DNA of 63,938 nt, the filler included, from Octopus bimaculoides (Eukaryota), in NCBI RefSeq assembly GCF_001194135.2. It is 6 parts of 6 records of this genome, joined end to end, with 100 filler letters (N's around TTAATTAATTAA, not from the genome) between each part and the next. Parts side by side here need not be neighbours in the genome. Positions count along the whole stretch, not along the records: positions 1 to 31,460 come from NC_068994.1; positions 31,561 to 42,960 come from NC_068999.1; positions 43,061 to 59,291 come from NC_069000.1; positions 59,392 to 61,235 come from NW_026300895.1; positions 61,336 to 62,596 come from NW_026386405.1; 1 more part is not named here. The stretch is one strand, 5' to 3'. Every line of letters begins with the position of its first letter. Position 1 is the first letter of the stretch. Made by a program: the position numbers and the translations under genes. Positions 9,782 through 61,629 of the stretch are shown here, one piece after another. The notes below the pieces were generated by a model. The model saw nothing but the letters and a program-made list of their open reading frames with translations, was not told the DNA's origin and made no database searches.

Positions 9782-9830
9782 GTCTCCTATGAAGGGAAGT
9801 ACTGGACCTTCCCAGAAACAGCTGTAAGAC
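9782..9830 (+). ncRNA. Type I hammerhead ribozyme motif with mutated core (HH1)
   Basis: GTCT-CCTATGA-A GGGAAG tactggac CTTCCC A-GAAA-CAGCTG-TA-AGAC: helices I, II and palindromic III intact, GUA triplet, but core reads CCTATGA instead of CTGATGA. Confidence 0.5.
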
Positions 9831-10057
9831 TCTATCCATAAAATTCTTCAACCTTACCTTTGCTCTCTTTATCTTTTTGTTTTTATATATTTGCATATAT
9901 ATATATATATATATATATATATATATATATATATATATATATATATATATATATATAAATATACTTATATATATATATATACACACACACACATAGACGT
10001 GCGCGCACACACACACTCACACTCACTCACTCACTCACTCACACACACACACATATA

Positions 10058-10660
10058 TTGGGTTATTCCATAAATAATGCGGTTTTTTAAAAATACTTCT
10101 TTTATTTTCAAAATTGAGATAAACAAAGATCTTTTTCAATCTAAAATATACTCTCCTTCATTTTCTACAATGCTCTTCCATCTATCTAGTAGATTTGCAA
10201 GGCTCCTCTTCCAAAATTCACTTATCCATGACGAAAAATACTCCTCCAGTACTGTTCTGACCTCGTCTACAGGATTCACATTTTTCCGTCCTAATGAGTT
10301 TGAAGGCTGCGGAACAAATGATAATCAGATGGGGCAATGTCCAGCGAATATGGTGGGCGAATCATCGTTTCCAATTCAAACTGCTCCAGTCTTTGGAATG
10401 TCATCCTCGCTGTATGTGGGCAAGCATTATTCTGATGGAAGAACGCCTTTCGTCTTGAAACGAAAGATTGTCGTTTTTCTTCTAGCGCTGACTTAACCCG
10501 CTCAAGCTGCTCGCAGTAGTTCTTTGTTATCGTTTGGTTTGGATTTAAATGTTCAATGTAGATTAAAACTTTCATATCCCAGCAAACAGATAACAACACC
10601 TTATGTGAGTGAAGGCCCTACTGTCTTCGGCGCTTGACATTTTTATAGAGAACCCATTTC
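10058..10660 (-). mobile_element. Mariner transposon 3' half with TIR
   Basis: ORF 10291-10599: MLLSVCWDMK...FFHQNNACPHTA...PPYSLDIAPSDYHLFRSL; terminal TTGGGTTATTCCATAA next to TA at 10056. Confidence 0.88.
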
Positions 10661-10689
10661 TCGTCACCATTTTAGAACCGATAGGCAAC

Positions 10690-10830
10690 GAATTTAGTCG
10701 TCACTAAAGTCATGGAGGGTGATAGTAAGCACCAGCATTTCGATAAATAAGAGTCAAAGCAACTCTTATCCAGGTAAGTGCAATGTTTTTTACGGCTGGC
10801 AAGGGAGACAGGCTACCTCCCTACGACAAG
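10690..10830 (+). mobile_element. Short CR1/Jockey-like RT sliver
   Basis: Frameshifted VVTKVMEG...KQLLSR*VQCFLRLARETGYL resembles the RT segment VISKVME...LLSDxQYGFRxxRST. Confidence 0.35.
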
Positions 10831-10837
10831 TGAGATG

Positions 10838-10887
10838 GAATCATATCAGCGCTGATTTCAAATTTAATCAATCTTCATCAGTGACCC
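10838..10887 (-). ncRNA. Type I hammerhead ribozyme motif (HH2)
   Basis: Minus strand GGGTCA-CTGATGA-AGATT gatta AATTT-GAAA-TCAGCGCTGA-TA-TGATTC: intact core, perfect palindrome ATCAGCGCTGAT as helix III, AUA triplet, helix I with two G-U pairs. Confidence 0.8.
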
Positions 10888-59291: not shown

Positions 59292-59391
59292 NNNNNNNNN
59301 NNNNNNNNNNNNNNNNNNNNNNNNNNNNNNNNNNNTTAATTAATTAANNNNNNNNNNNNNNNNNNNNNNNNNNNNNNNNNNNNNNNNNNNN
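59292..59391. other. Artificial assembly join with TTAATTAATTAA linker
   Basis: Linker at 59336-59347. Confidence 0.95.
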
Positions 59392-60237
59392 GCTAAAAGA
59401 GGGTATTGCTAATAAATAAATAAAGGTAATTTGTACTGAGTAAGTCCCAGTAGGGAAGTTGTCCCATGTTAATGAACTTATCAGCTGCAGCTGAGAAGTG
59501 GACTGAATTCTTTGGGTGAATCATCATCATAATTTTATGTCTGTTTTTCATACTGGCATGGTCGGCTGGATCATTATGGTCAGTCACTTCTTACTGGGAG
59601 CTACAAGTTTCATAAACTAGTACTCATACAGGTCATTTCACCTGCAACAGGGGTGGGGGGTGAGCCAGTTCATCTTGCTCTCTTCCCTCCCTTTTTCTAT
59701 CTCTCTATCTATCTATATCATGTACATACCCTGTCTTTCTAGCTCTTCATAGCATCCATTCAAATACCATTTTCTATAACGCCAGTTATCGGAGCAATAT
59801 ATAGTCTGGGTTTGAAGCAGGTGTTACACACGCTAGTTAACCCAGAGCTGGAATCCCAACAGTTCATACCAGACCTGAGAATGAAAAGAGCTAAAAAGTG
59901 GTCAAAACTCTGGGACTCCCATGCCAAGGCCCCACTACCAGATCCAGTTCGAATTGTTACCCAGTACCATGAGAAAATACACCCAATACACTTTACAGAG
60001 TGTACTAGGTGTATTTTCTTATGGCATTGAAACTAGAGACGTTTAACAGTTCTCAATGAGACAGGACAAAAGGGACCTCACAATAGTATACTTGCTCTGT
60101 TCATATGCAAATCACTTTGTAAGTGTACACTAAGAATGCTTTTATATCACCAGTACACTAATCTTTCTAAAAGTCTCATGGGGGTATGGTCGGACGGTAA
60201 CTTTCTATCATGGCATTGGCACAGGACATGGGTATCT

Positions 60238-60432
60238 TCATCATTATCATCATCATCATTTAATGTCTAGCATGGGTTGGATTGTTTNNNNNNNNNNTCA
60301 TTATCATCATCATCATTTAATGTCTAGCATGGGTTGGATTGTTTGTTAGGAGCTGGCAAGCCAGAAGACTTACTACAGGTTTCACTGTTTTGGCATGGAT
60401 TTTATGGCTGGATGCCCTTCCTAACACCAATG
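60238..60432 (-). mobile_element. SINE family C copy (contains a gap-flanking duplication)
   Basis: GGATGCCCTTCCTAAC core and (CAT)n tail as at 6308-6580. Confidence 0.7.
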
Positions 60433-61235
60433 TGTACTAGTTAAAAATGTTGTTTGCTTCCTTAACGCTTATTTTCCAGCATCTAAGCATGGTGACAGTT
60501 GTCAATTTGAAAAAGACCAACTTATTCTTATTTACTGGTACAATGATTTCGCATGTTTCTGGAAACCATTTTAGAGCTTGGATCTTGATAAAGTCTGGCA
60601 AAAAGTAGGGATGCCAAGAACAATTTTATCCATTAATGTAGANNNNNNNNNNTCTGGCAAAAAGTAGGGATGCCAAGAACAATTTTATCCATTAATGTAG
60701 ATCATTTACAAGAGGTAATGTAAATAAAATTAATAAAGATTTGACCATTTATTTATATAATCTGACCATTTATTTATATAATCTATCTTGTGTTGTTTGG
60801 TGTACAACAGCATTATTCATTATGGATTTCTGATGGATCAATCACTAGCTTCTGATAGTAAGAGTAACAGGGTATTGTCTATGCAAGTCTGTGCAGGATG
60901 AATACTTACTACGAAAACATTTTTGATCAAAACTTTTCAAGTTTTCTTTATGATATGTACATCTTTTTACTGGCAAAAGTTATATATATACATATATATA
61001 CACACATGCACACACATAGGTGCAGATGTAGCTATGTGGTTGAAAGCTTGCTTCCAAACCATATGTTCTTGGGAAAAGACTAATAAGAAAAATATTAATA
61101 AAAAAAAATGATTAAATTCAAACACAGTTATATCTTCAAAATATAGATATGATAAGAAGTTTGCTTCCCAACCATATGATTCTAGGTTCAGTCCTACAGT
61201 GTGGTAACTTAGACTAATATCTTACACTATAGTGC

Positions 61236-61335
61236 NNNNNNNNNNNNNNNNNNNNNNNNNNNNNNNNNNNNNNNNNNNNTTAATTAATTAANNNNNNNNN
61301 NNNNNNNNNNNNNNNNNNNNNNNNNNNNNNNNNNN
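61236..61335. other. Artificial assembly join with TTAATTAATTAA linker
   Basis: Linker at 61280-61291. Confidence 0.95.
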
Positions 61336-61629
61336 AAAAATAGCAGTCAAATCCTGACTCCAAAACCACAATAAATGTCCGCATAGCATGAGTAGCGTGT
61401 GCATACGTGCATATATATGTAAGTATACTGTTTATATACATGTATTTGTATTTATGTACTTGAGTATATTCCACTGATGAAGGCAAAGCATTATTATTTA
61501 TGCAAAGCCAGAAATCCAGGATTTGGAATTATCTTGTAATTTTACTGGTTTATTTGGTCTTCGTCTTCGCTACTCATGCTATGCGGACATTTATTGTGGT
61601 TTTAGAGTCAGGATTTGACTGCTATTTTT
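61336..61629. repeat. Inverted repeat: arms 61336-61397 and 61568-61629
   Basis: 62-nt arms with one mismatch; the left arm is cut by the assembly join. Confidence 0.9.
61468..61529 (+). ncRNA. Type I hammerhead ribozyme motif (HH7) in the inverted-repeat loop
   Basis: ATTCCA-CTGATGA-A GGC aaa GCAT..ATGC aaa GCC A-GAAA-TCCAGGA-TT-TGGAAT: perfect 6-bp helix I, intact core, helix III ATCC-A-GGAT, AUU triplet. Confidence 0.75.

Follow-up and report, generated by a model that had tools for sequence, protein, structure and literature searches.

Hammerhead motifs in the window

This work deals with hammerhead ribozymes and remnants of Penelope-like elements (PLEs) in a 63,938-nt stretch of Octopus bimaculoides DNA (the window), which consists of six parts of this genome joined end to end. 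An original prediction had listed eight sites in it as six to eight type I hammerheads. Four of these are intact (10881-, 15402+, 57279- and 61474+; sites are named by position and strand), two are decayed (9786+ and 44511+) and two doubtful (29762-, formerly placed at 29641-, and 43357); one further site, 61861-, was newly added. Intact here denotes an exact CUGANGA core, GAAA, a helix I of 6–7 bp, a palindromic helix III and UH. All type I hammerhead features were found at 10881-, 15402+ and 61474+, and, with a weak helix II, at 57279-; they were incomplete at 9786+, 44511+ and 43357, and marginal at 61861- and 29762-. Positions are collected in Table 1.

In 10881-, helix III (ATCAGCGCTGAT) is a perfect 12-nt palindrome and the predicted cut falls after 10844. 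Helix III of 15402+ (ATCTAGGT) has 8 nt with one G-U pair, and that of 57279- (ATCGCGAT) is an 8-nt palindrome next to a helix II of 2 pairs around a mismatch. 61474+ carries ATCC-A-GGAT, i.e. 4 bp plus 1 nt, and an extra base on each side of helix II, and the added site 61861- carries ACTA-T-TAGT. At 9786+ the helices are good (helix III ACAGCTGT); the CTGANGA core proposed there in fact reads CCTATGA. Site 29762- would need a helix II of about 100 nt, its helix I has 3 bp, and its non-palindromic helix III (ACTGCTGT) gives a self-duplex of only -1.9 kcal/mol. No descriptor was satisfied at 43357, including a test for core plus helix I. Two loose extra sites, 40707(-) and 39385(+), lie inside the shuffle expectation and were left out of the counts. 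The intact motifs amount to 4 in 58,818 non-N bases, or 1 per 14.7 kb (Poisson 95% interval 1.1–10.2 motifs), and counting the three imperfect sites as well brings this to about 1 per 8 kb, where roughly one per 10 kb had been predicted.

Table 1. Hammerhead motifs, associated arms, PLE remnants and other repeats, in positions of the window
Feature	Position	Strand	Remarks
Intact type I hammerhead 10881- (parse 10881-10844)	10838-10887	-	helix I 6 bp, helix II 5 bp
Intact type I hammerhead 15402+ (parse 15402-15462)	15395-15469	+	helix II 6+5 bp; predicted cut after 15462
Intact Hydra-clade-type hammerhead 61474+ (parse 61474-61523)	61468-61529	+	predicted cut after 61523
Near-intact type I hammerhead 57279- (parse 57279-57247)	57241-57285	-	helix I 6 bp, weak helix II
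Decayed hammerhead 9786+	9782-9830	+	two core substitutions; helix I 4 bp, helix II 6 bp
Decayed or partial hammerhead 44511+	44504-44551	+	core and 10-nt palindrome ACACCGGTGT; helix I 0 bp adjacent
Doubtful hammerhead-like stretch 29762- (parse 29762-29647)	29644-29765	-	two loose descriptors only
Added Hydra-type hammerhead 61861-	61777-61866	-	helix I 5 bp; one additional core base; helix II region long
Inverted copy of the 3' arm of the 15402 element (left fold-back arm)	15186-15334	-	matches 15475-15613 at 95% across 140 bp
3' arm of the 15402 element	15469-15614	+	ends at (CA)n 15614-15650; many contigs from other copies span it
Inverted copy of the 3' arm of the 61474 element	61336-61397	-	61/62 identical to 61568-61629; cut by N gap
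3' arm of the 61474 element with one-sided extension of ~40 nt	61568-61668	+	ends in (TA)n
Decayed Hydra-clade PLE reverse transcriptase	29807-31132	-	DKT motif; stops, frameshifts, microsatellite insertion; tblastn E 3e-45
Decayed C-terminal (endonuclease-region) Hydra-type PLE fragment	13557-13823	+	tblastn E 6e-08 to P0014 aa 568-659
Decayed reverse transcriptase and GIY-YIG-region remnant, second, non-Hydra PLE clade	37066-37735	-	
Mariner/Tc1 transposase remnants	8900-9630 (+), 10100-10620 (-), 22384-22725 (+), 24587-24766 (+), 38450-38746 (-)		Pfam Transposase_1, HTH_48; self-BLAST
SINE-like dispersed repeat family (SINE, short interspersed nuclear element)	17416-17781, 27158-27540, 45907-46074, 62739-62919, 63756-63905		at least 5 copies, 74-86% alike; self-BLAST
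Second dispersed repeat family	3403-3608, 19004-19209, 46169-46609, 54263-54652		

Excess over chance and predicted folding

For a chance control, we shuffled the 50,374 bases outside repeats 200 times, locally and with dinucleotides preserved; the real scan covered the whole window. With the strict descriptor, three sites were observed against a shuffle mean of 0.01 (maximum 1), and allowing one mismatch in helix II added 57279- (four observed, mean 0.03, maximum again 1). The loosest descriptor found five sites, a number reached in 12 of the 200 shuffles, so that its excess over chance is not clear, and the two loose descriptors passed by 29762- have shuffle means of 0.19 and 2.08. Since the strict descriptors had been fixed after the sites had been seen, a fairer test was run whose sole requirements were an exact core, the GAAA and UH elements and a helix I of 5 bp, with helices II and III left free. 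It returned exactly the four intact sites, against a shuffle mean of 0.21 and a maximum of 2, and a self-complementary helix III of 8–12 nt was present in all four of them and in one of 42 chance cores. Neither the strict nor the helix-III-free count was reached in any shuffle. Chance is excluded as the source of the four intact sites.

Folding predictions point to motifs of the dimer type. At six sites the helix III hairpin had a free energy of 0.0 to +4.8 kcal/mol, whereas the corresponding self-duplex reached -6.2 to -19.5 kcal/mol; palindromic helix III and unstable monomer hairpin, the dimer-type trait of PLE hammerheads, were thus both found. In agreement with the dimer-type helix III proposed originally, the A15.1-U16.1 pair had a probability of at most 0.05 in monomers and 0.69–0.98 in self-dimers at five of seven sites (0.00 and 0.90, respectively, for 10881-), and for 10881- and 9786+ the minimum-energy fold of the dimer is a complete double hammerhead. 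In monomer folds, core and helix III tend to form wrong pairs with each other. The folding z-scores of monomers did not reach significance (1.04 to -1.71), as expected for a dimer-type motif, and we do not take them as support.

Flanks, insertion hallmarks and Penelope-like remnants

Beyond simple repeats, the flanks of the eight sites are mutually unlike; the sole likeness is a 15/17 match around the core between 10881- and 15402+. The sites hence belong to different families, as the original prediction of several distinct retroelement-type families had it, and the covariation that it saw between sites is no true covariation because the flanks are unrelated. Neither a tandem array over any motif nor a repeated motif family was found inside the window. 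Hallmarks of PLE insertion are present at 61474, namely an inverted arm, a tail of about 40 nt and (TA)n, and at 15402 in the form of arms and (CA)n; a second copy of the 3' end of the 61474 element lies at 52644-52697(-). PLE insertions have been described to show inverted 5' copies and one-sided tails of 30–40 bp and to target (TA)n (PMC8557442). At 10881-, 57279-, 9786+ and 44511+ no such hallmark was seen other than nearby (TA)n. Four sites have (TA)n within 60–146 nt (background fractions 0.05–0.13), the distance being 60 nt for 57279- and 70 nt for 9786+; at the others its closeness is unremarkable.

Three decayed PLE coding remnants lie in the window (Table 1). For one of the reverse transcriptase (RT) remnants, the sole relative found was an Octopus bimaculoides protein of 50% identity. 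From the Hydra-type RT, a 93-aa piece at 30286-30564(-) gave 1331 relatives in a HMMER search; a word-indexed search of proteins with the RT piece gave no match, and none of eight Hydra-type relatives had a Pfam match. Likewise, a Pfam scan of the window, which covered 150 of the 200 open stretches of at least 58 aa, returned no RT or GIY-YIG match; it assigned a family in seven stretches, which were either pieces of mariner transposases or weak matches. The same set contained no identifiable host gene. Site 29762- starts about 50 nt past the Hydra-type RT remnant, with the expected endonuclease region absent in between, and is the only motif, albeit a doubtful one, that follows an RT remnant; this adjacency somewhat raises its odds. 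Ahead of the same remnant, at ~31250-31130, comparison with relatives revealed a piece like the linker that follows the RT, an arrangement that looks like one copy's end fused to the beginning of the following one. No hammerhead was found 3' of the 37066-37735(-) remnant.

A full-length relative, P0014, led to 14 loci, six of which contain a hammerhead with a 9–10-nt helix III. These six (L003, L004, L005, L008, L011 and L013) are Hydra-type PLE loci in metagenome contigs, and in L003-L005 the hammerhead lies 200–370 nt 3' of the open reading frame (ORF). We built a covariance model (CM) from five of these hammerheads, all from loci unrelated to the window; L013 was left out because its core was misplaced in the MAFFT alignment, and one match within the ORF of L004 was disregarded. 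The CM recovered 61467-61530(+) at E 3e-05 and 61775-61868(-) at E 0.0025, and its remaining four of six matches had E 0.43 or worse. The Hydra-clade trait, a helix III of 4 bp with a 1–2-nt centre together with a CM match, is thus confined to 61474+ and 61861-.

No Rfam hammerhead family was found in local scans of three sites, nor among the best 150 of 279 matches in the window, which were dominated by microsatellite-driven microRNA matches; presumably, the Rfam models miss PLE-type hammerhead variants. Viral contigs contained no PLE locus and no motif match. Three pattern matches in prokaryotic genomes had a helix I of only 0–1 bp and were treated as chance.

Variation and RNA of the 15402 family

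Contigs from two DNA data sets and reads from two RNA data sets were aligned to 15327-15612 (286 nt), and all variant figures refer to the variants listed. The family is multi-copy, with 757 and 573 contigs in two species, although the total depth should not be read as a copy number. Among the 21 variants listed in the motif, 15 fall on paired positions, and none changes the CUGAUGA core. T>C at 15455 (frequency 0.57/0.70) turns helix III into a perfect palindrome, T>C at 15466 and 15467 (0.94/0.94 and 0.63/0.58) replaces G-U by G-C, and C>T at 15435 (0.99) closes a mismatch. These four thus restore Watson-Crick pairing at high frequency, as does 15397 at low frequency. Another four of the 15 replace a Watson-Crick pair by G-U with no change of the partner among the variants listed, and 15412 T>C with 15447 A>G is a possible, unphased compensatory pair. 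At the predicted cut, 15462 A>C retains H17, which is A or C across copies. One loose RNA end contains a 10-nt palindromic helix III, so that helix III varies in length while its symmetry is kept. As restoring variants are common in other copies, the copy in the window is a slightly worn member of a hammerhead-shaped family. Structure-consistent variation was found within this family, the one compared across copies.

RNA reads of the 15402 family numbered 52 and 69, obtained from about 6% of each of two runs and in both orientations; they show low-level transcripts of the family with no sign of cleavage. In these few cDNA reads, from libraries ill-suited to small circles, no go-back joint was seen. 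Two positions in the 3' arm of the 15402 element, 15564 and 15577, read A>G in RNA (5/5 in one run) and this change is absent or rare in the DNA contigs. It could be adenosine-to-inosine editing of a fold-back RNA, or the reads could simply come from another copy.

Discussion

We consider it likely that the hammerhead motifs of the window are lone 3' ends, i.e. pseudo-long-terminal-repeat (pLTR) pieces, of several unrelated PLE families. Truncated and often partly inverted insertions, probably made by the PLE RT-endonuclease known from the literature, would leave behind solo hammerhead-bearing tails. In the parent elements, two neighbouring copies would pair via the palindromic helix III to a double hammerhead that is predicted to cut after UH, and the function of this cut would, by analogy to published elements, be the cleavage of tandem precursor RNA. 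Our dimer folding results agree with the published model of tandem pLTR copies that pair up as dimers and cleave the precursor RNA (PMC4209133, PMC6765202). Lacking a partner in cis, the solo copies of the window would for the most part be inactive and in decay, save for pairing in trans; a neutral loss of this kind is consistent with the decayed sites. Published PLE hammerheads, too, are for the most part solo (PMC4209133).

PLE hammerheads have been published before, including Hydra-1_oBim of the Hydra clade from Octopus bimaculoides itself (PMC4209133, PMC8557442), and Craig et al. 2021 list in File S2 Hydra-clade hammerheads with a 9–10-nt helix III, Hydra-1_oBim among them (PMC8557442). 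The Hydra-clade forms are of type I, have a CUGANGA core, often with one extra base, lie near the 3' end and target (TA)n (PMC8557442). Their helix III of 4 bp with a 1–2-nt centre fits 61474+ and 61861-, and helix III of the latter is identical to that of Penelope-1_HM (PMC8557442). As the window sequences are unlike Hydra-1_oBim (PMC8557442), they belong to other families. In contrast to the Hydra-clade type, 10881-, 15402+, 57279- and 44511+ have even, perfect palindromes of 8–12 nt, which for the first three goes along with their being missed by the CM. The table of Craig et al. includes perfect 8-nt palindromes (PLE-X1_cBra), and canonical helix III in it reaches 10 nt at most (PMC8557442).

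A second group of relatives are the PLE variants with minimal hammerhead ribozymes and small palindromes (Cervera and De la Pena 2014; PMC4209133), which, like the motifs of the window, are dispersed, mostly single and from diverse families. Shared features are the palindromic helix III, an extra base after A9 and the dimer model, and the opposite-strand pairs 100–700 bp apart have a counterpart in 61474+ and 61861- (PMC4209133). In contrast, helix III has 8–12 nt in the window and 4–6 nt in those variants, and the density of about 1 per 15 kb, if typical, would exceed 2,000–9,000 per genome (PMC4209133). Our literature searches found no genome-wide survey of cephalopod hammerheads, and the words 'ribozyme' and 'hammerhead' are absent from the main text of two cephalopod repeat papers. 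Judged from sequence, the motifs are additional, previously unlisted families of the published PLE hammerhead class, with cleavage predicted. The 12-nt palindrome that repeats the CUGAU of the core and the high local density go slightly beyond the published cases compared here, although Lunse et al. may already cover 10–12 nt.

Several observations weigh against the motifs being PLE 3' ends that act as dimers. None of the intact motifs has a PLE ORF match immediately 5' of it, which agrees with the predicted detachment from coding sequence; the closest remnant on the same strand stops about 1.6 kb short of 15402, and microsatellites and a gap intervene. The closeness of (TA)n is modest, with background fractions of 0.05–0.28 for five sites. 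A paired helix III in the self-dimer is not predicted for 15402+ (0.02) or 61861- (0.004), and the Hydra-type CM did not match 10881-, 15402+ or 57279-. Cross-copy support covers the 15402 family alone, and in this family four of the 15 paired-position variants break a pair with no partner listed (15398, 15399, 15420 A>T and 15469), while 15451 G>A abolishes G12 in ~0.08–0.10 of the depth. None of the RNA reads is at least 99% alike to the window copy, reads span the predicted cut site, and neither a pile-up of read ends at 15462 nor RNA joints were seen, which in two fragmented-cDNA runs is a weak test.

Retrozymes are the next relatives to be considered. Non-LTR retrozymes are non-coding, PLE-related, carry a type I hammerhead and occur also as solo monomers, all as in the window (PMC7229834; 10.64898/2026.07.22.740005). 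They are defined, however, by tandem units and circular RNA, and in the window there is no tandem unit and no circular joint was seen. The motifs are not tandem retrozymes, since no tandem repeat extends over them. It is possible, though clearly less probable than lone PLE ends, that the 15402 family, if no other, represents a short non-autonomous element in its own right, such as a retrozyme monomer or a fold-back resembling a miniature inverted-repeat transposable element (MITE), which multiplies as a separate unit by means of PLE enzymes and is more than a truncated PLE tail. The contig numbers in the two species, a coverage that begins near 15361, and a loose RNA end in which (TA)n-linked sequence like 15100-15120 is joined straight to 15361 suggest a unit of a few hundred bases, and retrozyme solo monomers have been described (10.64898/2026.07.22.740005). 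However, the window contains no tandem copies, no go-back joints were found among the DNA and RNA rows listed, and the only two opposite-strand joints lie at different places, so that fold-back is not established as a fixed family feature; moreover, the stretch compared across copies spans only 286 nt.

We may speculate, with little confidence, that the genome contains hammerheads in the order of 100,000, from many PLE-derived families, including short fold-back non-autonomous elements and a long-palindrome variant (12 nt at 10881-). With helix III of this variant repeating the CUGAU of the core, a lone copy might lock itself, its core being paired to the 5' half of its own helix III, until a partner copy frees it; this would make for a built-in dimer switch and possibly for dispersed transcripts cutting one another in trans.

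Still less probable is a selection by the host that keeps motifs intact for cutting host transcripts, for example by trans-dimers of abundant copies. The exact core retained in four motifs and the low-level transcripts of the 15402 family would be in line with it. In contrast, the 15402 copy of the window differs from other copies by four weakening changes, as neutral decay predicts, three other sites are decayed, no reads stem from this copy or pile up at its cut, and no host gene was identified in the open stretches scanned. That the sites are chance matches or C/D-box small nucleolar RNA (snoRNA)-like sequences in AT-rich DNA is highly improbable. Chance applies to 43357 and possibly to 29641-, the count of the loosest descriptor was reached by 12 of 200 shuffles, and weak C/D-box Rfam matches (E 5.6–9) overlap two sites. 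These matches, however, lie far under gathering scores, shuffles never matched the strict and helix-III-free counts, and variation in the 15402 family tracks hammerhead pairs.

The motifs contribute several unlisted families to the published class and show that hammerhead motifs can be dense in octopus-like DNA. With their longer palindromes and strong predicted dimer pairing, 10881- and 61474+ would be convenient natural substrates for the dimer model, as published minimal forms cut poorly. Furthermore, the motifs could be used as anchors to annotate PLE 3' ends.

Other features of the window

GC content is 32.6% across all window positions, 5,120 of which are N. Microsatellites are abundant, next to mariner pieces and dispersed repeats (Table 1); self-similarity was determined by masked self-BLAST, which replaced a repeat-finder output swamped by simple repeats. 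No hammerhead was found within a 387-bp self-inverted stretch at 25963-26334 (74%) that ends at (TA)n and is possibly a MITE or fold-back insertion, nor within a tandem duplicate (92%) of a 134-bp unit in a GC-richer stretch at 39915-40183. Islands of 12 bases flanked by runs of 44 N occur at 31505-31516, 43005-43016, 59336-59347, 61280-61291 and 62641-62652; both islands inspected read TTAATTAATTAA, likely an assembly or scaffolding artefact. Finally, a weak zf-RVT match (E 0.003) at 63359-63766 (-) likely marks the end of the ORF of a long interspersed nuclear element.

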